NCBI GenBank assembly: GCA_963844035.1
Contig: CAWJMT010000004.1
Coordinates: forward strand, 352,001 to 416,000
Length of the DNA stretch: 64,000 nt
DNA from: an uncultured Gemmatimonadales bacterium
GTDB lineage: Bacteria > Gemmatimonadota > Gemmatimonadetes > Gemmatimonadales > GWC2-71-9
Direction: 5' to 3'
Below are positions 11,377 to 58,347 of this stretch, piece by piece (within the stretch, counting starts at the first letter, position 1; the number at the start of each line of letters is the position of its first letter). Made by a program: the position numbers and the translations under genes. The notes below the pieces were generated by a model, which saw only the letters and a list, made by a program, of their open reading frames with translations, did not search any database and was not told the origin of the DNA.

Positions 11377-11456
11377 GGCCGACAAAGGCACACCCGGAGC
11401 GATCCGGGGCCGCAAAGCCAGGAGTCTCCCCCGGGGAGACCGTCCGGTTGCCGACG
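11377..11456 (+). promoter_or_regulatory. Cyclic di-GMP-I (GEMM-I) riboswitch
   Basis: AAGGCACACC-CGGA-GCGA-UCCG-GGGCCGCAAAGCC...GUCU...AGAC...GGUUGCCGA matches the GEMM-I pattern (GNRA-capped P2, GCAAAGCC junction, P3, GGUUGCCGA). Confidence 0.85.
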
Positions 11457-23107: not shown

Positions 23108-23290
23108 AGGCGAGCCGGTCTCCTGGCTCGAGGCAGCGCCATCGGCCTTCCCAGGGGGGCTATGCACATCCCCAGTGGCCAGACTTCGGTGGCGTCTTCC
23201 GCGGTGCTCCGCGGGCCTCTTACAGTGGCGGGGCCGCGCCGGTCTCACACCGGCTTCCGTATGGTCCGCCTGCGTCTGTTTTGGACTTCG
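23108..23290 (-). promoter_or_regulatory. Cobalamin riboswitch
   Basis: Minus strand reads GGAAGCCGGUG...CCGGCGCGGCCCCGCCACUGUAA...GCCACUGGG...GGGAAGGC...GAGCCAGGAGACCGGC (B12 box), upstream of the btu-like operon. Confidence 0.95.
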
Positions 23291-35068: not shown

Positions 35069-37168
35069 TCACGCGGCGTCCACCGTGATGTCCACCAGCG
35101 TCATGGGCAGGTGATCCACCTGCGCCACCAGCGTGATCACGCGTCCGGCGCTGGTCATGCCGCTGAGCCGCACCAGCTCGCCGTGCTGCGGATGGCGGCC
35201 GGCCGGAGTGACCGGGGTGGGGCCCGCGACCGGCTCGATCGACTCGAGCGCCTCGAGGATCTCGGGCACATGCACGCGGAGCTGTTGACGCTTCCGCTCC
35301 CAGCCCGGCGCCTTGACCACCTGGCTCGTGCCGAGTCCCAATCGCAACCGGCCCGGCACCGACAACGTCTCGAAGCGCCGTTCCAGCCGCATCGCGTTGT
35401 CGTCCGGCGCAATCAGCGAGTTGAGCTGCTCCTGCTCCTTGCCCACCGCGCTGCTGTGCTCAATGTCGGCCCCGATCGCTTCCACGCGGCGCGCGAAGTC
35501 TTGCTCGTTCTCAGCCGCGAGCCACTGTTCCGCGAGCCGGCCTTCGAAGTGCTGCGCGCCCCCGAAGTCCCCAAGGATCAGGTCCAGCTCGCCTACCACC
35601 AGCTCGAACAGCTTGATCTTGCGGTCGAGCAGCTGGAGGATGTACGCCTCGATCGTGCCCGACGCGGCGAGGTTGATGATGTGCACCTCACGCTTCTGCC
35701 CGATGCGGTGCAGCCGTCCGATGCGCTGCTCCACCACCATCGGGTTCCAGGGCAGGTCGTAGTTCACGAGCACGTTGCAGAACTGCAGGTTGCGGCCTTC
35801 GCTCCCCGCGCGCGTGGCGATCAGGACGCTGCGCTCGTCCTCGTGGAACGCGCGGATCCGCTTGTCGCGCTCGGGAGTCGAGTGCGCGCCCCAATACACG
35901 ATGGCTTGTCTGCCGAGCTTGGTGACGCGCTCGGCGATCAGGTCGACGGTCGGGCGGTGATCGCTGAAGACCAGGACCCGGCCGGGCGTTTCCTTGAGGA
36001 GCTTGGTCAACACCTCGAGCTTGGCGTGCTTCGTGATCTTCCGCGCCCGTTCTGCCAACTGGCGCGCCATGGTGCGGTACTGCGGGCTGACGTGCTCGCC
36101 TTTCGCGAGCTGCTCGAGCGACTCGCCCAGCGCGCGCGCCGAGGAGCAGAGCCGCTGCCGCAGGTGCAGCACCGCGAGCTGTACCGTTCCCTTGCGAGTC
36201 TTCGTCCCCTCCTCTTCCCCACTCGTCTCGACGAAGCCTTCGCGGTACAACCGCCGCAGAAAGTCCGTCGTGCGCTCGTACAGGTCCGCTTCGCCGGGGG
36301 TGAGCTTCACCTCGGGGTGGCGCGGCCGGCGCGGCGGCAGGTCCAGGTCGTCCACCACGCTCGAGCGCCGCGTGCGGATCATTACTTCGTGCGTCAGCAC
36401 CCGCAGCGCTTCGGGGTCGCGCGGCTGACGGTGGTCCCCTGACGTGAGGTGCTCGCGCTTGAACCCGTCCCAGGTGCCGAGCTGACCCGGCCGCAGCAGC
36501 GTGACCAGGTTGTACAGCTCGCGCAGGTCGTTCTGGAGTGGCGTGGCGGTGAGCAGCAGGATGAAGTCGCGCTCGATCTTCTCGATGAACTGGTAGGTCG
36601 CGCTGGTGTGGCTCTTCACCTTGTGCGCCTCGTCCACAATCACGAGGTCCCAGCGGTGCCGCAGGATCTCCTCGGCGTGGCGGCGGGTGCGCGCGCGGTC
36701 GTGCGACACGATCGCCTTGGTGACGCCCCGCCAGTCGTCGGGGTCGACCGGCGCCTCGAAGCGCTCGAAGAACTTCTCCTCCAGCTCCCCCTGCCATTGG
36801 CCCACCAGCGAAGCGGGCGTCAGGATCAGCGCGCGGCGCGCGAGCCCGCGGACCGCGAGCTCCTTATAGATGATGCTCGCTTCGATCGTCTTGCCGAGGC
36901 CCACTTCGTCGGCCAGGATGGCGCGGCCGCCCAGGTCGCGCAGCACCCGTTGGGCCACGTCGATCTGGTGGGGCAGCTCCTTGATCGCGTTGGCGTCGAG
37001 CGTGATCAGCCGGTCGAAGCCCGGGACCAGGGCGATGCGTTCCGCTTCGCGCCGTAGCTCGTACCAAGCGCGGCCAGCGGGCGGTTGTTTCAGCTGCTCG
37101 GCGAACACCTGGAGGGACTGCTCGTCGACGGCCCAGGAGTCGTCAGTTAGTTGGTTGGGTACGGTCAA
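35069..37168 (-). CDS. SNF2-family helicase (YqhH/RapA-like)
   Basis: ILADEVGLGKTIE, DEAH, LTATP, GSEGRNLQ, YDLPWNP..VEQRIGRLHRIGQ. Confidence 0.95.
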   Translation of the reverse strand: MTVPNQLTDDSWAVDEQSLQVFAEQLKQPPAGRAWYELRREAERIALVPGFDRLITLDANAIKELPHQIDVAQRVLRDLGGRAILADEVGLGKTIEASIIYKELAVRGLARRALILTPASLVGQWQGELEEKFFERFEAPVDPDDWRGVTKAIVSHDRARTRRHAEEILRHRWDLVIVDEAHKVKSHTSATYQFIEKIERDFILLLTATPLQNDLRELYNLVTLLRPGQLGTWDGFKREHLTSGDHRQPRDPEALRVLTHEVMIRTRRSSVVDDLDLPPRRPRHPEVKLTPGEADLYERTTDFLRRLYREGFVETSGEEEGTKTRKGTVQLAVLHLRQRLCSSARALGESLEQLAKGEHVSPQYRTMARQLAERARKITKHAKLEVLTKLLKETPGRVLVFSDHRPTVDLIAERVTKLGRQAIVYWGAHSTPERDKRIRAFHEDERSVLIATRAGSEGRNLQFCNVLVNYDLPWNPMVVEQRIGRLHRIGQKREVHIINLAASGTIEAYILQLLDRKIKLFELVVGELDLILGDFGGAQHFEGRLAEQWLAAENEQDFARRVEAIGADIEHSSAVGKEQEQLNSLIAPDDNAMRLERRFETLSVPGRLRLGLGTSQVVKAPGWERKRQQLRVHVPEILEALESIEPVAGPTPVTPAGRHPQHGELVRLSGMTSAGRVITLVAQVDHLPMTLVDITVDAA

Positions 37169-37245: not shown

Positions 37246-37251
37246 GGACGC

Positions 37252-37326
37252 ACGTGACGGGTCTCCGCGTGCGAGCCGTTCGCTACGCAGACCGAAAGCC
37301 GGGGGGGTAACCCTCCGGCTTTCGTT
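37252..37326 (+). ncRNA. Putative anti-tRNA antisense sRNA, orphan copy (predicted target anticodon GUC)
   Basis: ACGUGACGGGUCUCCGCGU + ...UUCGCUACGC hairpin + GAAAGCCGG...CCGGCUUUC terminator; homologous to 38537, 57464 and 58269. Confidence 0.6.
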
Positions 37327-37390
37327 ATTGTGGCGACGCCGTGCGCGTGACCCGACCGCCTGACCGCCGTATTATCCGACCACCGCTCTA

Positions 37391-38160: not shown

Positions 38161-38255
38161 ACTAGGCGCATAGACGCATAGACGCATAGGCACGCATAGA
38201 CGCGTAGGGACCGCCCGACCACCGCTTCGTCCAGCCCGGGGGTGAACCCACCCGG
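38161..38255. repeat. GACGCATA-type short tandem repeat plus REP-like CCCGGGGGTGAACCCACC element
   Basis: ACTAGGCGCATAGACGCATAGACGCATAGG...; related copy at 38631-38716. Confidence 0.65.
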
Positions 38256-38403
38256 ATTTTGTTGCGTGGGAAGGATCCGCTTCGCGCGCATTTCATCACC
38301 TGGATGACGCCGGGTGCGCACACAATGATCCCGCGGCTCGGTAGCACTTGTTGGGTGTCACGTCATGGCGCTTAGGCCATACCAAGGTCCGCAACCGCTC
38401 GGT

Positions 38404-38487
38404 GCCGGCGTGGCGGAATTGGTAGACGCGGATGCCCCACAAGCATCTGGGCGAAAGCCCGTGCGGGTTCGAATCCCGCCGCCGGCA
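38404..38487 (+). tRNA. Type II tRNA with tRNA-Leu body and CAC (Val) anticodon; C at position 33; CCA not encoded
   Basis: Acceptor GCCGGCG/CGCCGGC, D arm GCGGAAUUGGUAGACGC, anticodon arm GAUGC-CCCACAA-GCAUC, V arm GGGC-GAAA-GCCC, T arm GCGGG-UUCGAAU-CCCGC, A73. Confidence 0.85.
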
Positions 38488-38501
38488 CGGCCGTGCATCC
38501 C

Positions 38502-38530
38502 TTGTTCGAAGGAATGGGCGGCAGTATTTT
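38502..38530 (+). promoter_or_regulatory. Putative sigma70-like promoter of antisense sRNA 1
   Basis: TTGTTC-17nt-TATTTT, then 6 nt to the first complementary base (38537). Confidence 0.6.
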
Positions 38531-38536
38531 TGAGGC

Positions 38537-38610
38537 GCTTGTGGGGCATCCGCGTAGCCGATTTCGCTACGCCAAGAAAGCCGGGGGTGTAACCTCCGGC
38601 TTTCGCTTTT
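38537..38610 (+). ncRNA. Putative antisense sRNA against tRNA 38404-38487
   Basis: 38537-38555 is the exact reverse complement of 38426-38444; 38561-38573 pairs with 38407-38419 (2 G-U); ends in a GC hairpin plus U tract. Confidence 0.7.
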
Positions 38611-38630
38611 CCGGTTCAGCGTCGTGCCCT

Positions 38631-38716
38631 TACCCCGGGGTGCCGCCCCGGGGTGAACCCACCATCCTACTAGGCGCACAGGCGCAAAGACGCATAGGCG
38701 CATAGGACCGCCGACG
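38631..38716. repeat. REP-like palindrome plus GCGCATAG-type tandem repeat
   Basis: CCCCGGGG...CCCCGGGGTGAACCCACC followed by ACTAGGCGCACAGGCGCAAAGACGCATAGG. Confidence 0.6.
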
Positions 38717-38780
38717 CGCGGGCGGCGCGGCCGCCAGCGGTCCCCCTCCCCCCTCCCGCGTCCCTGCCGTACTCTTTTCC

Positions 38781-48773: not shown

Positions 48774-50237
48774 GTGACGGCCGCCCGATCCCTGCTCTGC
48801 ACCGCGCTCGCGCTCACCGCATGTCATGCCGCGGGGGGAGAGCGCGTGTTCCGCTGGGGCGGCGACGCCGAGGGCGGCGCGCCGTTCGTCGAGGCCGACC
48901 CGGCCGATCCCTCCCAGGTGCGCGGCTTCGACGTCGAGGTGGCGGCGACCATCGCCCGGGGGCTCGGCCGCGAACCCCAGTTCGTTCAGGTGCAGTGGTC
49001 CTCGATCGACCAGTCGGTCGAGCGCGGCGACTTCGAGATCGGGATGTCGGGCGTGGAAGACTCGCCCGCCCGCCGCGCACAGCACGCCGTCACCATCCCC
49101 TACTTCGAGTTTCGCGAAGTGCTCGCGGTCCGCGAGGGCGATCGCGACCGCTTCCGCCGGCTCGCCGATCTGCGCGGCCGCCGCGTCGCCACCCTCGGCG
49201 CCACGATGGCGTACGACATCCTGCTCGCGGCGCGCGACTCGTCGGGCATCATCCCCGTCTCATACGACGACGACGTCCATCCCTACGGGGACCTGGTCGC
49301 GGGACGCGTGGATGCCGTGCTGCTCGATCACATCATCGCCCAGCGCGCTCTCTCCCGCGCTCCCGGCGGTTTCGTGATCCAGCCCGAGCCCGTAGCCGTC
49401 GGCCGCTACGTCGGCGTGCTCGCGCGCGCCAACGCTTCGTTGCGCGACTCGGTGAACACCGCGCTGACAGAAGCAATGCGCGACGGCACCCTGGAGCGCA
49501 TCTTCCGCCGCTGGCAGGTGTGGGACGACACCCAGGGTGCCCTGTTCGCGCAGGTGCTGCGCTCGCCCGGAGCGGAGCGTACGGCGACGGCCACCGCGCC
49601 GGTTCAGGCGTTGGCCTACCTCCCCGCCCTGCTCCGCGCCGCTGGCGTGACTGCACTCGTGTCGGTGCTCGCGATGGCGCTCGCGGTGGTCGTCGGACTC
49701 CTGGTCGCGGCGGGGCGCGTGTATGGCAGCGCGCCCGTGCGCTGGCTCACCGCCTGCTACGTCGAAGTGGTGCGCGGGACCCCGGTGCTGCTGCAGCTGT
49801 TCGTCATCTACTACGGGCTGGTGGGGGTCGTCCGGTTGCCGGCGCTGCTCGCGGCCGTGCTCGGCCTGGGGCTCAACTATGCGGCGTACGAGGCCGAGAT
49901 CTACCGCGGCGCGCTCGAGGCGGTGGCGCGGTCGCAGCTCGAGGCCGCGCGCACCCTCGGCTTCAGCGAAGGACAGATCCTCCGTCTCATCCGCGGCCCG
50001 CAGGCGTTGCGCTACGCGCTCGCGCCGATGACCAACGACTTCGTGGCGCTGCTCAAGGACTCGTCGCTCGTGTCGGTGATCACCGTCGTCGAGCTGACCA
50101 AGCAGACCGCGATCTACGCCACCAACGTCGGCAGCTGGATCGTCCCCGGGGCGCTGTGCGCCGCCGTGTACCTCGCGATGTCGCTGCCGCTCACGCACCT
50201 GGCGCGCCGGCTGGAGCGGCGCTGGAAGGTGGCATGA
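48774..50237 (+). CDS. Amino acid ABC transporter, fused substrate-binding protein and permease
   Basis: LTAC lipobox, GFDVEVA; RGTPVLLQL, EAARTLG, LLKDSSLVSVI. Confidence 0.92.
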   Translation: MTAARSLLCTALALTACHAAGGERVFRWGGDAEGGAPFVEADPADPSQVRGFDVEVAATIARGLGREPQFVQVQWSSIDQSVERGDFEIGMSGVEDSPARRAQHAVTIPYFEFREVLAVREGDRDRFRRLADLRGRRVATLGATMAYDILLAARDSSGIIPVSYDDDVHPYGDLVAGRVDAVLLDHIIAQRALSRAPGGFVIQPEPVAVGRYVGVLARANASLRDSVNTALTEAMRDGTLERIFRRWQVWDDTQGALFAQVLRSPGAERTATATAPVQALAYLPALLRAAGVTALVSVLAMALAVVVGLLVAAGRVYGSAPVRWLTACYVEVVRGTPVLLQLFVIYYGLVGVVRLPALLAAVLGLGLNYAAYEAEIYRGALEAVARSQLEAARTLGFSEGQILRLIRGPQALRYALAPMTNDFVALLKDSSLVSVITVVELTKQTAIYATNVGSWIVPGALCAAVYLAMSLPLTHLARRLERRWKVA

Positions 50238-51016
50238 GCGCGCTGCTGTCGATCGAGGAGCTACGCTTGTGCTTCGCCGAGCGCGTGGTGCTCGAAGACC
50301 TGTCGCTCGAGGTGGCGCGTGGCGAAGTGGTCGCGCTGATGGGGCTGTCCGGTGCCGGGAAAACGTCAGTGCTGCGAGCGGTGGCGGCGTTGCAGCCGTT
50401 CGAGACCGGCCGCATCGAGGTGGACGGCGTCGCGCTCGCGCCGGGGCGCGTCCCGCCTGAATCGCGGCTCTCCGAGCTACGCCGCCGCGTTGGGCTGGTA
50501 TTCCAGAGCCACGCACTGTTCGAGCACCTGAGCGCGCTCGAGAACGTCACCCTCGCGCTGTGCCACGTGTGGGGCCGCCCTACGCCCGAGGCGGAGCGGC
50601 TCGCGCTCGACCTGCTGCACGCCCTGGGCGTGGGCGCGCGCGCGCAGGCGTTGCCCGCGCGCCTGTCGGGCGGCGAGGCGCAGCGCGTGGCGATCGCCCG
50701 CGCGCTTGCACCCGATCCTCCGCTCTTGCTCATGGACGAGCCGACTGCGGCGCTCGACCCGGCGCGCCGTGGCGCACTCGGTCAAACGCTGCGGCGTCTG
50801 GCGGCCGATGGACGTGGTTTGTTGGTATCGACGCATGACGTCGCATTTGCGCGGGCGTACGCCGATCGCGTCGTCATCCTCGCTCAGGGAGCGGTAGTGG
50901 AATCCGGTGAGGCGGACGAGGTGCTCGATCGACCGACCCACGATGCGACGCGGGAGCTGCTGGAGGTGAAGCGGCGGACGGGCGGTCTGGCGGTCTGGCG
51001 GACCTTTCTGACTTGA
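50234..51016 (+). CDS. Amino acid ABC transporter ATP-binding protein
   Basis: GLSGAGKT, LSGGEAQRVAIARAL, DEPT. Confidence 0.92.
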   Translation: MSALLSIEELRLCFAERVVLEDLSLEVARGEVVALMGLSGAGKTSVLRAVAALQPFETGRIEVDGVALAPGRVPPESRLSELRRRVGLVFQSHALFEHLSALENVTLALCHVWGRPTPEAERLALDLLHALGVGARAQALPARLSGGEAQRVAIARALAPDPPLLLMDEPTAALDPARRGALGQTLRRLAADGRGLLVSTHDVAFARAYADRVVILAQGAVVESGEADEVLDRPTHDATRELLEVKRRTGGLAVWRTFLT

Positions 51017-51039
51017 CCGCCCGACCGCCGTTGCTTCTT

Positions 51040-51364
51040 GACCGCGACTCCAGTGCCCGTCGACCCAATACCAGCGGCCGCGCTTGTGATTCCAGTGGCC
51101 GGGCACCCACCGGCGGTAACCGCGCTCGAGCGGCACCCAACGGCCCCGCACCCAGCGGTAGTTGTTGTGCTCCCACTTCCAGTAGCCGGCGACCCACACG
51201 TAGTTCGGCCCGGGCGCCGGGACGATCATCTCGACGCGGTCGGGTGGCGGGCGACGCTCGGTGTACACCAGGTCCACCGACAGGCCGCTGCCGGCGCAGG
51301 CCAGCGCGGCGCAGAGTACCAGGCTCGCTCCGAGTGCTCGGAGATGCGTCGTGAGGTTTTTCAT
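51040..51364 (-). CDS. YXWGXW/WxxGxW repeat lipoprotein (stop uncertain)
   Basis: ALAC; WVAGYW, WVRGRW, WVPGHW, WVDGHW. Confidence 0.85.
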
Positions 51365-51519
51365 AGACTCGACTCCTTTCACCCTCCGAGGAGGGTATCG
51401 TGCTGCGGAAGGTCCAGACTAAAAGTTTCGCGGCGCGGCAGTTGTGAGATAGCGCACAAACTCGATGCGCTGACGATTGCGTTTGCGCGTCACAGTGGCT
51501 TTCCGGCTAAACTGTTCCC

Positions 51520-54432
51520 GTGGCCTTCGACCCACTCCCAGAGCAACGTGCCGCCATCGAGGCGCCACTCGGCCCCGTCCTCGTCATCGCGGGACCGGGC
51601 GCCGGCAAGACGTACTGCCTGGTCGCACGGATCAATCATCTGATCGCAGCGGGCACCGTTTCGCCCGAGCGCATTTGCGCCGTCACGTTCACCAACCGCG
51701 CCGCCGAGGAGATCGCGGCGCGCCTGAAGCACACCCTGGGGGACCGCGCCGAGGCGATCACCCGCGGCACGATCCACGCCCTGTGCCTCGGCCTGCTGCG
51801 CGAGCACGCCGAGCTGGCGGGGTTGCGTAAGGGGTTCGGGGTGGCCGACGACCCCTATCAAAAGGTGATCCTGAAGCGGCTGGGCGTGCCCCTGAGTCAT
51901 CGCGGGGGGCTGTTGAACCGGTTCAGTCGCCACCGCGCCCAGGACTACGAGCTGACGGCCGACGACATGCGGCTGTATCGCGAGTACGCCGCGTGGCTCG
52001 CGGGTCGCAACATGGTGGACTTCGACGACCTGGTCACCAAGGCGCGCGAGCTGCTGCGCACGCATTCGGGACTAGCCGAGCGCGTCGCCGCACGCTGGGA
52101 CTATCTCCTGGTGGACGAGTTCCAGGACGTCAATCCCGTGCAGTACGACCTGCTCAAGCGCCTGGCCACGCCGCACGACAACTTTTTCGCCGTCGGCGAC
52201 GACGAGCAGTCGATCTTCACGTGGACCGGGGCCGACCCGTACGTCCTCAAGCGCTTCAGCACCGAGTACGGGATCGAGCGGCCGATCGTACTCGACAAGA
52301 ACTGCCGCTGCTCGCGGCAGATCTTCGAGACTGCGCGGCGCGTGCTGGCGCAAAATCCCCAATTGTTCGACAAGCAGCTCACTGCCGAGCGGGAGTCGCG
52401 GTATGAAGTCACCGCGGTCGCCTTTCAGGACGAGCAGGACGAGGCGGCGTGGATCCTGGAAGACATCCAGAGCGACCGCGCGGCATCGGGATTGAGTTGG
52501 GGCGCCTATGCCCTGCTGTACCGCAAGCACAAGGTCGGTGACTACCTGGAAGGGCGTTTGTTAAAGGAGGGGATTCCCTGCCGCCTGGCGCGCGGCCGCT
52601 CGCTGGTCGAGGACGACGTCATCAAGTACGTCGTGGCGGCGTTACGCATCGTGCGCGACCCGGGGGACCCCGTCGCGCTCGAAGTGTTCGCGCGCTGCGT
52701 GCTCTCGGAGAACTTTCTCCAGGAAGTTCAGGGGGCGATCGGCGCCGCGGACGACTTCTTGGCGGCGGTGCGCGCGTTGGCGGGGCGCCGCCCCGCGACC
52801 GACCCCGATACGCGCAAGCTGTGGCGCTTGGTCTTCCAGGTCGAGAACTTCCACGCCTTGAGCCGCTCCCACGTCGCCCTGGCGCCGCTCGTGGACGAGA
52901 TCCTGTCGCAGAGTGTCGGGCCCTACAAGAACGTCCTGGAAGAGCGCCACGACGAGCTCAGCGATCCCGCCGATAGCCCCGAAGTCAGAGCCCTCGCCGA
53001 GCGACTTGCGCCGGCGCTCGCGGGAGAGCGCAGCGTCGCGATCTCACACCGCAGGGTGGGCTCGAGATCGCGTTGCGAGGCATGCTCGCGGCCGCCGGGT
53101 TCCGGCACGTTCGCTCGGACCTGAACGGCGATCTCGTCATTGGAGCGGGGGATGGAGGCGCGCGCGGGCTGGCGCTCACCCTGTTCAAGGCGCTCCAGCT
53201 GTTGCACGCCAAGGATCTGGACACCCCGCTCGAGCGCTACGTCACCTTTGACCTCGAGACCACGGACAACGACGTGGCCAGCTGCGGCGTGGTCGAGATC
53301 GGCGCTGCGCGCGTGGTGCGCGGTGAGATCGTGGCCCGGTTTCATACGCTGGTGCAGCCACACCGGCCGATCTCGCCCAAGGCGAGCGCGATCCACGGCT
53401 ACACCGATCGGGACCTGGCCGACGCACGCTCGTTCGCCGAGGTGTTCCCCGAATTCCGCGCGTTCGTGGGCGACGATCTCGTCATCGCGCACAACGGCCA
53501 GAAGTTCGACGTCCCGGTGCTGCGCCGTTTGGCCGCCGGTGCGGCCGGCGTGGACACCCTGGCCTTCTATGATACGCTCCCGCTAGCGCGGTCGCTTTCT
53601 AAGGACAGCGTCACGCAGGAGAACCTGGCGCATCGCTTCGGGATCGACGGCGGCAGGGCGCATCACGCGTTGGACGATGCCGTCACCCTGGCCGGGATCT
53701 ATCGCGAGCTCGAGCGCCAGCGCGGCGTGCGTGCACGTAAGGCCGTGCTCGTACACATCCTCGATTATCTTGGGCTCGCCCTCGCGCTCGAGGGTCCTGA
53801 CGACCCGAGCAGAAGCGAGCGGGGAGCGAGCGCTGCTGTTCGACATCGCGCGGGTCCGCACGCTGGGCCGCTATGGCGACGCGTTGCGGTTCTACGAAGT
53901 CGAGCGCGACCGCGCCGGCGCATCCTCCGGGCCAACACTAGACGAAGTGATCGAGCGGTTGGGTGGAGCCGCCATGATGACTCGCCTGCGCGCCGACCCG
54001 GCAGAGCGCTATCCGGCGGCGCTCGCTCGCCTGCGCGCCCTCATGGAGAGCAGCACCGAACGGACGTTAGCCGAGAGCATCGATCGCCTGCTCGAACGCA
54101 TCGCGCTCTCGACGTCTGATGGGGTCGAGGTCGCGCCCGACCGGGTCAATTTGCTCACACTGCATTCGACCAAGGGATTGGAGTTCTCGCGCGTCTACGT
54201 CGTTGGGGTGGAGGACTATCAGATCCCGGGATTCCACGAGACCAGGGAGCAGCGGGAGACTGATATCCAGGAGGCGCGCCGTCTCTTGTACGTCGGCATG
54301 ACTCGGGCGCGGGAGCGCCTGGTGTTGACCCGCGTCGAGCGGCGGTTCGGCATGGACTCAGGAGGCAGCGCGTTTCTCGAGGAGATGGGGCTCGAGGTTT
54401 CCACAGCCGACGCTTCATACAAGGAGAGTTGA
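51520..54432 (+). CDS. UvrD/PcrA-like SF1 helicase with inserted DEDDh (DnaQ-like) exonuclease domain, two frameshifts
   Basis: AGPGAGKT, DEFQD, VGDDEQSI; FDLETT, AHN..FD, HHALDDA; TLHSTKGLEF, LLYVGMTRAR. Confidence 0.9.
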
Positions 54433-57132: not shown

Positions 57133-57327
57133 TAGAGGCTCCTCCGTCTTTTACCAGCCGGGCGCGACATGTCGCGCCCCTACACCCGGCGTGGTTTCGT
57201 CCCCCCTCGCGTGTTTCGGGCACCTCAACCCTTCGGTATGGCTTGCATGGTCTCGACGTGGGCGGCAGCACGTATGGGATCACGCGTCTCGGCCTTCGGG
57301 ATTGCCTGGGTTCGCAGCCGGAAAGGT

Positions 57328-57411
57328 GCTGGTGTGGCGAAACAGGTAAACGCGGAGACCTCACACGTCTCTGGGCGAAAGCCCTTGTGGGTTCGAATCC
57401 CACCACCAGCA
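57328..57411 (+). tRNA. Type II tRNA with tRNA-Leu body and CAC (Val) anticodon; CCA not fully encoded
   Basis: Acceptor GCUGGUG/CACCAGC, D arm GCGAAACAGGUAAACGC, anticodon arm GAGAC-CUCACAC-GUCUC, V arm GGGC-GAAA-GCCC, T arm GUGGG-UUCGAAU-CCCAC, A73. Confidence 0.88.
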
Positions 57412-57428
57412 CCCTCCCCGCACCACTC

Positions 57429-57457
57429 TTGACTCGGCGATGAGCCGAGATGAAGTT
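57429..57457 (+). promoter_or_regulatory. Putative sigma70-like promoter of antisense sRNA 2
   Basis: TTGACT-17nt-GAAGTT, then 6 nt to the first complementary base (57464). Confidence 0.55.
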
Positions 57458-57463
57458 GTCACT

Positions 57464-57541
57464 ACGTGTGAGGTCTCCGCGTAGTGCGCCGTTCGCTACG
57501 CTGCTGAAGGCCGGAGGGGCAACCCTCCGGCTTTCGCATTT
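57464..57541 (+). ncRNA. Putative antisense sRNA against tRNA 57328-57411
   Basis: 57464-57482 is the exact reverse complement of 57350-57368; 57492-57501 pairs with 57332-57341 (2 G-U); GCCGGAGGG/CCCUCCGGC terminator. Confidence 0.7.
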
Positions 57542-57611
57542 CCGGGACGGAGGGAGTGCCTTCGTGATACCGCGGGGCATGGCCCCGCGGTAAACCCACC
57601 CGGACCAGGCT

Positions 57612-57947
57612 CGTCCGCGCGCACTTTGCGACCGTCAGCGAGCATCTTCCAATTGTCCGCGCGCACGTTGTGATCGTCAGCGGGCATCTTCCGACTGTCC
57701 GTGCACACTTTGCGACCGTCAGCGAGCATCTTGCAACTGTCCGCGCACGTCTTTCCGCTGTCAGCGCACACTTTGCGACTGTCCGCAGGCACTGGGGGAC
57801 TGTCCGCGCGTTCTTGGGCGTGATCCGGGGACACTTTGCAAACGACAGAGCGCACTGGGCGATTGTCCGAGCGCTTTGGGGGACGGTCCGGGGACATCGG
57901 GGGATCGTCAGCGCGTCTCTTGCAACAATCCGAGCATTCCTCGGGCC
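57612..57947. repeat. Degenerate 21-bp tandem repeat, 16 units
   Basis: Units such as CGTCCGCGCGCACTTTGCGAC and CGTCAGCGAGCATCTTCCAAT in strict 21-nt register; heptad peptides on both strands. Confidence 0.85.
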
Positions 57948-58186: not shown

Positions 58187-58216
58187 TTGTGGGTTCGAGT
58201 CCCACCACCAGCACCC
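58187..58216 (+). pseudogene. 3' fragment (T arm plus acceptor strand) of the CAC tRNA
   Basis: TTGTGGGTTCGAGTCCCACCACCAGCACCC, one mismatch to 57385-57414. Confidence 0.8.
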
Positions 58217-58268
58217 CCACTCTTAGGTGTCCATTGACTCGGCCGCGGCAATTCACGATGTTTTCACT

Positions 58269-58338
58269 GTGTGAGATCTCTGCGTAGCCAGTTTCGCTAC
58301 GCCAAGAAAGCCGGGGAGCGTAACGCTCTCCGGCTTTT
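58269..58338 (+). ncRNA. Putative antisense sRNA copy 3 (promoter TTGACT-17-GATGTT at 58234-58262)
   Basis: GUGUGAGAUCUCUGCGUAGC...GCUACGCCAAGAAAGCCGG...CCGGCUUUU. Confidence 0.65.
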
Positions 58339-58347
58339 GAGGCGTGT

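Follow-up and report, generated by a model that had tools for sequence, protein, structure and literature searches.

What does a tRNA gene do when its body and its anticodon disagree, and when the exact complement of its own anticodon arm follows a short distance downstream? The question is raised by a locus in a 64,000-nt stretch of DNA (hereafter, the window; contig CAWJMT010000004.1, positions 352,001 to 416,000, assembly GCA_963844035.1) from an uncultured bacterium of the order Gemmatimonadales, whose metagenome-assembled genome (MAG) has a size of 3.47 Mb and is 84% complete. A tRNA gene with a leucine-type body and the anticodon CAC is followed there, on the same strand, by a putative gene for a small antisense RNA directed at that very tRNA; the pair is called module 1 below. 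The first-pass annotation had described a single module. The locus at 38404-38612 proved to be real, but it is in fact one of a large lineage-wide family with many anticodons. We put at roughly one in two the probability that it represents an RNA-only toxin-antitoxin-like module, in which the tRNA would insert leucine at the most used codons and the cognate antisense RNA would unfold or destroy the tRNA. The features of module 1 are as follows:

38321..38326, + strand: putative -10 box (CACAAT) of the leader/tRNA promoter, a TAnnnT-like hexamer at a fixed distance before the leader start in an alignment of 78 modules
38333..38403, + strand: conserved leader of about 70 nt upstream of the tRNA, from the alignment of modules
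38404..38487, + strand: type II tRNA with a leucine-type body, anticodon CAC, A73, A37 and C33 (ARAGORN, Rfam tRNA model)
38426..38444, + strand: target segment within the tRNA (tRNA positions 22-40), covering the D-stem 3' strand, position 26, the anticodon-stem 5' strand, the loop and the first bases of the 3' strand; one arm of an inverted repeat
38502..38530, + strand: promoter-like site of the small RNA, TTGTTC (38502-38507), 17 nt, TATTTT (38525-38530), read from the sequence, with an arrangement kept in the family
38537..38612, + strand: antisense small RNA of about 75 nt in the predicted fold, with a 19-nt guide (38537-38555), hairpin 1 (38552-38558/38566-38572), a GC-rich terminal hairpin (38576-38604) and a U-rich tail; 70.5 bits with the covariance model R1 at 38535-38612

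Two tRNA genes were reported in the window by ARAGORN, both named 'tRNA-Val(cac)' and both unusually long (38404-38488 and 57327-57414). Both qualify as tRNAs by the Rfam model RF00005 (56.1 bits for 38404-38487 and 59 bits for 57328-57411, with a gathering score of 29), and the two methods agree on the complete type II cloverleaf with anticodon CAC that the first-pass annotation had drawn at 38404-38487. Its description of a leucine-type body with a non-leucine anticodon was likewise borne out, the closest tRNA being the genome's own tRNA-Leu(CAG) (76% identity). The ordinary tRNA-Val(CAC) of the genome is a type I molecule of 74 nt with an unlike sequence. Assignment of the module tRNA to tRNA-Val was rejected, since that class has a type I body with a short variable region and the module tRNA has a variable arm carrying a stem. 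The long type II variable arm, A73, U8:A14, G18G19, the T-loop tertiary partners and C2-G71 are those of tRNA-Leu; the D-loop and T-loop motifs were built into the search patterns described below and are not independent evidence of a leucine body. The anticodon departs from the NAG or YAA of tRNA-Leu, being CAC in module 1 and CGC, CAC, GGC, CUC, GUC, GGU and others in the family. Module 1 also has C33 in place of U33.

The arms 38426-38444 and 38537-38555 were found by an inverted-repeat search to be 19 nt long, 100% complementary and 92 nt apart. The arrangement first described, TTGTTC, 17 nt, TATTTT, 6 nt and then a 19-nt exact complement, was therefore recovered both by reading the sequence and by this search; the guide starts at 38537. 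In the predicted fold of 38537-38612, hairpin 1 comprises 7 bp. The terminator proposed earlier corresponds to the GC-rich hairpin at 38576-38604 with its U-rich tail, and everything that the first-pass annotation had stated about the sequence was borne out. A simple promoter and terminator scan at its thresholds called neither the promoter nor the terminator of this small RNA. The promoter hexamers match only 7/12 sigma-70 consensus positions, which weakens the promoter call for this copy. Because they are weak and unflagged, the case for a promoter rests on family conservation: TTGnnn-16/18-nAnnnT-4/9 precedes the guide in 151/155 unique modules, and the mean sigma-70 match in the family is 8.0/12, compared with 6.5 for the leader/tRNA promoter and 5.7 for a control window. 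Many small RNA promoters (e.g., those of L023, L046, and L118) contain an inverted repeat, CTCGGC ... GCCGAG, between the -35 and -10 hexamers, which could be an operator or a structure within read-through tRNA transcripts.

The covariance model R1, representing the small RNA family, was built from alignment A3. Both small RNA hairpins are supported, with 94.3% of cells paired and compensatory changes on both sides in 14/18 pairs. Beyond the guide, nucleotides ~20-45 of the small RNA pair with tRNA nucleotides 1-21 (mean -25.8 versus -14.4 kcal/mol for shuffled sequences; 155 modules), so that the small RNA is an antisense image of tRNA nucleotides ~2-41, with hairpin 1 mirroring the D arm; inverted duplication of the tRNA 5' half is the probable origin of the small RNA. 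The segment 38404-38612 folds into one long helix (-137.5 kcal/mol, z = -11.3), in which tRNA nucleotides 4-20 pair with the hairpin-1 region and nucleotides 23-41 with the guide; this fold agrees with the earlier proposal that the 3' arm of the hairpin also pairs with the tRNA 5' end. No terminator between the tRNA and the small RNA was recognised in the module 1 fold or by the simple scan.

A BLAST search of 60 relatives yielded nine further modules, 13 in total. In all 13 of them, the reverse complement of the arm lies 40-57 nt 3' of the tRNA with 14-17/17 matches, compared with just 6-12/17 for 26 ordinary tRNAs from the same loci. In species-representative genomes, a pattern requiring a leucine-type D arm and variable arm, C36 and A37 gave 65 matching stretches, 61 of which were titled Gemmatimonadales, Gemmatimonadota or similar; their anticodons were CGC (24), CAC (17), GGC (11), GTC (5), and GAC, TTC, GCC and CTC (2 each). 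A downstream antisense of at least 13/17 was present in 58/65 of these loci and in 2/65 upstream control windows, so the complement that had been expected in homologous loci of other genomes is found there. In metagenomes, where positions 36 and 37 were left free and only A35 was forbidden, at least 121 pattern matches were obtained. Among the matches listed, the anticodons were CGC (46), CTC (29), GGC (11), GTC (11), GGT (10) and TTC (6), the rarer ones being CGG and GCC (2 each) and CGA, TGG, TGC and CCC (1 each); A37 occurred in all 121, and an antisense of at least 13/17 followed 109 of the 116 with enough downstream sequence (upstream controls: 6/114). The family anticodons in the genome loci and the metagenome matches listed are mostly those of Ala, Val, Glu, Asp, Gly or Thr, a spectrum that is incomplete because both patterns fix the body and omit NAA, NAG and NAU anticodons. 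None of 32 control tRNAs whose anticodons are ordinary was followed by a downstream antisense. When the anticodon was left free, this body pattern gave only six matches in IMG/VR viral contigs, all with leucine anticodons, 9-11/17 matches and no antisense. Chance origin of the complementarity between tRNA and guide is excluded by the controls.

The distribution of the family is patchy. At E <= 0.001, R1 matched 24/61 relatives and only 2/7 genomes of the own genus. At E <= 1e-6, it matched 20/151 genomes sampled across the phylum, this genome included; with this genome excluded, matches were found in 17/71 genomes of the own family, 2/2 of a sister family, 0/31 of a third family, and 0/46 of nine further families. 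Up to 8 R1 copies occur per genome, often 2-3 within a few kb. Among 14 small RNA loci from relatives, 10 have an odd tRNA upstream and four are orphans, one of which (L242) keeps only a tRNA 3' remnant just upstream. Anticodons switch rapidly: of the 300 pairs among 156 unique modules with at least 85% identity once arm and guide are set aside, 178 differ in the anticodon, the guide tracking the switch in the near-identical pairs inspected. One module, L019, comes from an unpublished genome (G020); it belongs to the 13 modules, supplies a row of alignment A2 and a single sequence in the pooled counts, and is absent from A3/R1 and A5. The genome itself is counted in the BLAST, R1 and TROVE surveys, and none of the claims depends on it by itself.

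Over 148 unique modules, the duplex between tRNA and guide spans tRNA positions 22/23 to 40. Conservation in the guide peaks at the complement of the loop, where tRNA positions 33-37 form Watson-Crick pairs in 95-100% of cases and deviate only by G·U. Across positions 27-38, G·U was counted 74 times and A·C 10 times. For alignment A5, every second of 146 unique modules with at least 13/17 matches was taken (73 modules, aligned with MAFFT, L019 left out). The tRNA-guide helix pairs in 93.9% of 1229 cells, compared with 71.4% after shuffling (0/500 as high) and 28-47% after sliding; this paired share is partly circular because the rows were pre-selected for complementarity, the unselected figures being 58/65 and, for the metagenome matches listed, 109/116. 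Changes on both sides were counted in 270 cells versus ~80 after shuffling, and the middle anticodon base pairs in 73/73 rows (GC 37, UA 24, AU 9, and CG 3). The RNAduplex energy with the own tRNA is -35.5 kcal/mol versus -20.6 kcal/mol with other tRNAs. These patterns indicate that pairing of the guide with the anticodon arm is under selection at the RNA level. They also accord with a further statement of the first-pass annotation, that the antisense is cognate (the guide co-varies with its own anticodon and stem, and the own duplex is 15 kcal/mol better than a foreign one). Co-variation across genomes is visible both for the small RNA hairpins and for the tRNA/guide helix.

The cloverleaf itself is under similar constraint. 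In A5, pairing reaches 98.4% in the anticodon stem, where all five pairs co-vary, and 98.9% in the T stem. A set of 118 unique tRNAs contains 28 distinct acceptor stems (96% Watson-Crick) and 65 distinct anticodon stems, together with A73 in 116, U8 in 117, A37 in 118, and U33 in 86; the other 32, including module 1, have C33. The bases CC follow A73 in 107/118. The absence of an encoded CCA is uninformative because the ordinary tRNAs of the genome encode none either. Since the cloverleaf, A73 and A37 are conserved, the element is a real tRNA under selection, and since the 5' strand of the anticodon stem co-varies with two partners, two alternative states are indicated, the cloverleaf and the duplex.

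The identity elements suggest charging with leucine. C2-G71 occurs in nearly all members of the family, and A73 is kept by those with Asp, Gly and Glu anticodons. G3:U70 is the identity pair of tRNA-Ala; it is present in 0/58 unique members with Ala anticodons, and tRNA-Ala identity was rejected for the CGC, GGC and UGC members. The ancestor-like tRNA-Leu(CAG) has G37 and the family has A37, a base suited to the decoding of G-initial codons, with which the change from G37 to A37 fits. The codons GCG, GCC, GGC, GUG, GAG and GAC, which rank 1, 2, 3, 6, 8 and 9 in the long open reading frames (ORFs) of the genome, are all read by family anticodons. In Escherichia coli, leucine identity depends on A73 and tertiary pairs and on neither the anticodon nor the variable arm, according to the part of PMC9976931 that deals with it. 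A search for a second leucyl-tRNA synthetase (LeuRS) in this genome (84% complete) gave one LeuRS locus above the cut-off.

The genome contains four modules, at 38404 (CAC) and 57328 (CAC) in the window and at 106399 (CAC) and 109280 (UGC) on contig C27. Their anticodon stems differ (GATGC, GAGAC, GCAAC and GTAAC), and the guide of each tracks its own stem and anticodon with 14-16/17 matches. The seven strong R1 copies of the genome comprise these four and three orphans (37250-37331 and 58265-58346 in the window, and C27:108923-109005). The further copies and remnants in the window are:

37250..37331, + strand: orphan small RNA preceded by its own promoter but by no tRNA (R1, 50.7 bits)
57328..57411, + strand: leucine-type tRNA of module 2, anticodon CAC, with a different anticodon stem (Rfam tRNA, 59 bits; cloverleaf fold)
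57429..57543, + strand: promoter of module 2 (TTGACT, 17 nt, GAAGTT) and small RNA 57462-57543, the guide following its own stem (16/17; R1, 58.1 bits)
58187..58215, + strand: tRNA 3' remnant (T arm and 3' strand of the acceptor) closely preceding an orphan small RNA, recognised by its likeness to the 3' end of the tRNA at 57328-57411
58265..58346, + strand: orphan small RNA with a guide mirroring a CAC anticodon loop (R1, 73.6 bits, the best match of the genome)

Several repeats accompany these copies. Head-to-tail repeats of ~45 nt were seen by eye at window positions ~57600-57790, in the interval that separates module 2 from the tRNA remnant and the orphan small RNA downstream of it. Module 1 is bracketed by a diverged direct repeat made of runs of an 8-nt unit (GCATAGAC-like) at 38164-38225 and 38672-38733, with 63-74% identity to the reference copy. 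Of the 8 genomic occurrences of a small hairpin motif that ends in GGTGAACCCACC, 5 adjoin modules (38229-38252, 38640-38663 and 57589 in the window; C27:109063 and 110192). This motif was rejected as a module boundary, being found at just 7 (downstream) and 5 (upstream) of 128 modules elsewhere. The motif resembles the terminal hairpin of the small RNA and was flagged as terminator-like by the simple scan; it may be a relic of decayed small RNA 3' ends. Four more long 'tRNAs' were called by ARAGORN in this genome (G000), at C4:258731, C4:295294, C3:289541 and C31:135238 (Asn, 85 nt; Asp(atc), 90 nt; Arg(gcg), 84 nt; Glu, 83 nt); none of them looks like a tRNA in sequence, and they are probably false calls.

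Both window modules are located beside defence-like genes, namely an SNF2 helicase matching BrxH/DrmD/DpdE models (35069-37168, - strand) and, at 48821-54119 (+ strand), an ABC ATPase matching mad3/AriA, a UvrD helicase matching GajB, and a DEDDh exonuclease. Ordinary genes predominate around the 14 loci inspected in relatives, the exceptions being Uma2 twice, an MNT/HepT pair once and DUF6088 once. A protein shared between loci was sought in 13 of them with 1.5-kb flanks and in 14 with flanks of up to 6 kb, and none was found except for synteny in two close-relative pairs of the first set; with the one LeuRS in the genome, this upholds the proposal of a module made of RNA only. A DUF5674 protein adjoins a GGC module in two genomes of one genus (L240:4910-6184 and L243:5527-6165), probably at the same syntenic locus. 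The first residues of a short ORF just after module C27a (G000 C27:106704 onward) look like a VapB-type antitoxin by eye. The window also contains a cobalamin riboswitch (23118-23258, - strand, 59.7 bits) and a c-di-GMP-I-GGC riboswitch (11378-11456, + strand, 59.6 bits, barely above the gathering score of 59).

The leader is conserved in two subtypes across the modules. RNAalifold gave a leader consensus fold of 5 pairs with no compensatory change, and such a fold was rejected. Some support exists for one long-range helix of 4 bp (columns 17-20 with 79-82 of alignment A4), in which 90% of cells pair, 19 rows having CG and 10 having UA. One leader segment resembles the guide of the small RNA, but its loop complement does not track the anticodon, and pairing of the leader with the anticodon arm in cis was rejected as weak (own -24.9 versus foreign -21.5 kcal/mol, median rank 0.20). 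In metatranscriptome run X20, a Logan contig of 193 nt lies over 38307-38495 with 20 differences and belongs to a relative with a CGC anticodon; a Logan contig of run X18 covers 38326-38436. The X20 contig was rejected as a bounded transcript, as it begins ~26-28 nt upstream of the predicted start and marks none. None of the aligned RNA-library contigs extends across 38490-38700, which is uninformative since guides differ between relatives and contigs drop rare forms.

On the toxin-antitoxin-like reading, gene 1 would encode a working tRNA that retains the tRNA-Leu identity set and reads a non-leucine codon, GUG in the case of module 1 and mostly GCG, GCC, GUG, GAG, GAC and ACC in the family. 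Because the anticodon plays no part in recognition by LeuRS, such a tRNA would receive leucine and place it at some of the most used codons of these GC-rich genomes. Gene 2 would be transcribed from its own, stronger promoter into an antisense RNA of ~75 nt. Pairing of its free 5' end would begin at the anticodon loop and spread by invasion into the anticodon stem and the D stem; hairpin 1 would then open and pair with the 5' part of the tRNA. The invasion would unfold the tRNA, and the duplex of up to ~38 bp would be a likely RNase III substrate. Since no terminator was recognised between the genes, read-through transcripts would carry the antisense in cis and be born locked. The pair would thus act as a toxin-antitoxin, addiction or abortive-infection module, a stable tRNA being checked by a continuously made RNA. 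A bolder version, which we place a little short of an even chance, is that Gemmatimonadales carry leucine-charged missense tRNAs aimed at their own most used codons, each caged by a private antisense, as an all-RNA toxin-antitoxin or abortive-infection system that would use recoding as its weapon, the joint and rapid switching of anticodon and guide being reminiscent of an arms race.

Several points weigh against this reading. We infer leucylation, leucine insertion, toxicity and antitoxin action from sequence. A73 and a CAC anticodon likewise serve ValRS, and valine might therefore be the amino acid carried by the window's CAC modules; C33, in addition, may weaken decoding. The leader/tRNA promoter is barely above background (6.5/12 versus 5.7/12 in the control window), and the predicted read-through fold is so stable that the tRNA might mature rarely. 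The contigs from RNA libraries cover the leader and tRNA of relatives only and could be DNA carry-over. No clear antisense lies within 330 nt of 7/65 genome tRNAs and 7/116 metagenome tRNAs among the matches listed. The arm and guide form a DNA inverted repeat, in which template-switch correction could keep the match, and A·C outnumbers G·U at positions 23, 26 and 39 of the 148 unique modules. The defence-island setting is not general, because the neighbours in relatives are mostly ordinary.

The structural evidence, cloverleaf and guide pairing alike, would equally fit a beneficial device, a leucine-inserting missense tRNA used under some condition with the small RNA as its ordinary repressor, neither selfish nor defensive. 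Natural mistranslating tRNAs do exist in bacteria (PMC10404621 and PMC11415595), and the mostly ordinary neighbours in relatives would suit such a role. We nevertheless regard it as doubtful: the modules are patchy even within the genus (2/7 genomes), several clustered copies occur per genome, orphan small RNAs and broken tRNAs are found, and the fast switching of anticodons (178/300 close pairs differ) suits accessory or selfish elements better. It is unlikely that the whole is instead a structured non-coding RNA, a read-through helix capped by a tRNA-like domain as in Y RNAs and serving as a decoy, a scaffold or a source of RNase III-derived small RNAs. The co-transcript fold (-137.5 kcal/mol, z = -11.3), the lack of a recognised terminator between the genes and a sub-threshold YrlA match on exactly this helix and the T arm (21.4 bits, E = 0.029) speak for it. 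That score, however, is far under the YrlA gathering score of 69, the genome has no TROVE/Rsr gene and the one relative of 61 that has one lacks the small RNA; moreover, the anticodon-stem 3' strand, the acceptor stem, A73, A37 and CC are conserved or co-vary outside the long helix, and a separate conserved promoter precedes the guide.

We consider it very unlikely that the roles are reversed, with the small RNA as the effector and the odd tRNA as its sponge; the true targets would then be other RNAs, for instance the anticodon loops of tRNAs from the host, from phages or from modules newly arrived. In favour of it are the high conservation of the loop complement, which exceeds that of the rest of the guide, and the persistence of orphan small RNAs without a tRNA; yet the guide also tracks the private anticodon stem of its module (65 distinct forms), the genome's ordinary tRNA-Val(CAC) has little in common with the module outside the loop, and the own and foreign duplex energies differ by 15 kcal/mol. 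The most improbable explanation is a feature of DNA, an inverted repeat at a tRNA-like attachment site or the scar of a mobile element, whose downstream arm would have no function as RNA. The tRNA 3' remnants adjoining orphan copies, the direct repeats flanking module 1 and the clustering of copies recall such elements. This explanation is opposed by the excess of G·U over A·C at positions 27-38 (74 versus 10) and by the conservation downstream of a promoter, two co-varying hairpins and a terminal hairpin; the flanking motif is present at just 7 (downstream) and 5 (upstream) of 128 modules, and no recombinase gene was seen beside the 13 and 14 loci examined. A toxin-antitoxin-like or defence element fits better than a housekeeping regulator because of the orphan antisense RNAs beside broken tRNAs, the patchiness, the clustering and the fast co-switching of anticodon and guide.

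The small RNA is covered by no Rfam family, and full-text literature searches returned no description of an odd tRNA with a cognate antisense, in line with the suspicion of the first-pass annotation that the architecture is new. The word 'antisense' does not occur in the text of PMC10404621, PMC5389517 and the 2024 review PMC11415595, nor 'Gemmatimonad' in that of PMC10404621 and PMC11415595, supplements aside. If the reading holds, this would be the first tRNA gene with a dedicated, co-evolving antisense RNA gene, the first natural leucine-type missense tRNA family in bacteria, and a toxin-antitoxin-like module whose harmful agent is a decoding error and not a protein. In its soil-bacterial hosts, members of the order Gemmatimonadales, the pair resembles an all-RNA switch that would restrain a code-misreading tRNA. 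It opens an old question to direct experiment, namely the amount of deliberate miscoding that a cell can encode and the means by which the cell is protected from it. Since the pairs are naturally insulated (-35.5 kcal/mol with the own tRNA versus -20.6 kcal/mol with others), they may offer ready-made orthogonal tRNA switches for genetic-code engineering. Annotation names these genes tRNA-Val, tRNA-Ala, etc. by the anticodon, and the amino acid so assigned is probably wrong.

Among known RNAs, YrlA (RF02553) likewise has a tRNA-like domain closed by a long helix of flanking sequence, and its Infernal alignment uses the helix of arm and guide. The modules differ from it in keeping a full anticodon stem-loop and in having a separate promoter for the downstream strand; membership in the Y RNAs was rejected (21.4 bits versus a gathering score of 69; no Rsr/Ro60 (TROVE) gene in the genome, 84% complete, and one in 1/61 relatives). 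The disagreement between body identity and anticodon is shared with tRNAProX of Streptomyces and relatives and with the allo-tRNAs, as far as they are described in the text of PMC10404621 and PMC5389517, respectively. The latter text states that allo-tRNAs often lie near toxin-antitoxin genes, those it mentions being protein systems, and a base other than U33 also occurs in natural mistranslating tRNAs in the text of PMC11415595. The module tRNA has a leucine body and a 7/5 arrangement of acceptor and T stems, whereas tRNAProX and allo-tRNAs have Pro or Ser identity and 8/4 or 9/3 arrangements. Allo-tRNA membership was rejected on this ground, as the module tRNAs have a 7-bp acceptor and a 5-bp T stem, and encoded mistranslation of the tRNAProX type, which involves a dedicated synthetase paralogue, was rejected with one LeuRS locus found in the genome (84% complete).

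The proposed module also resembles RNA-RNA toxin-antitoxins (type VIII: CreTA; SdsR/RyeA), in which, as here if the reading is right, a harmful product is silenced by an adjacent, separately transcribed base-pairing RNA. Comparable silencing by an adjacent base-pairing RNA is known from hok/sok, an antisense-controlled type I system. Assignment to type I was rejected, since the antisense target here is the tRNA itself and not the mRNA of a small toxin; a conserved reading frame is unlikely because module 1 and module 2 align only with gaps of 1, 2, 3 and 6 columns. A type VIII system would consist of an RNA toxin and an RNA antitoxin lying next to each other and lacking a protein partner; two adjacent RNA genes with no shared neighbouring protein were observed here, and a toxin role for either RNA is putative. 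CreT toxins act through tRNA supply, according to the relevant part of PMC8501985. In contrast to CreTA, the target here is a tRNA, not an mRNA or a tRNA-sequestering mini-ORF, and neither Cas proteins nor CRISPR-like repeats are involved. Compared with known toxin-antitoxins, the proposed harm would be miscoding instead of membrane damage or tRNA starvation.

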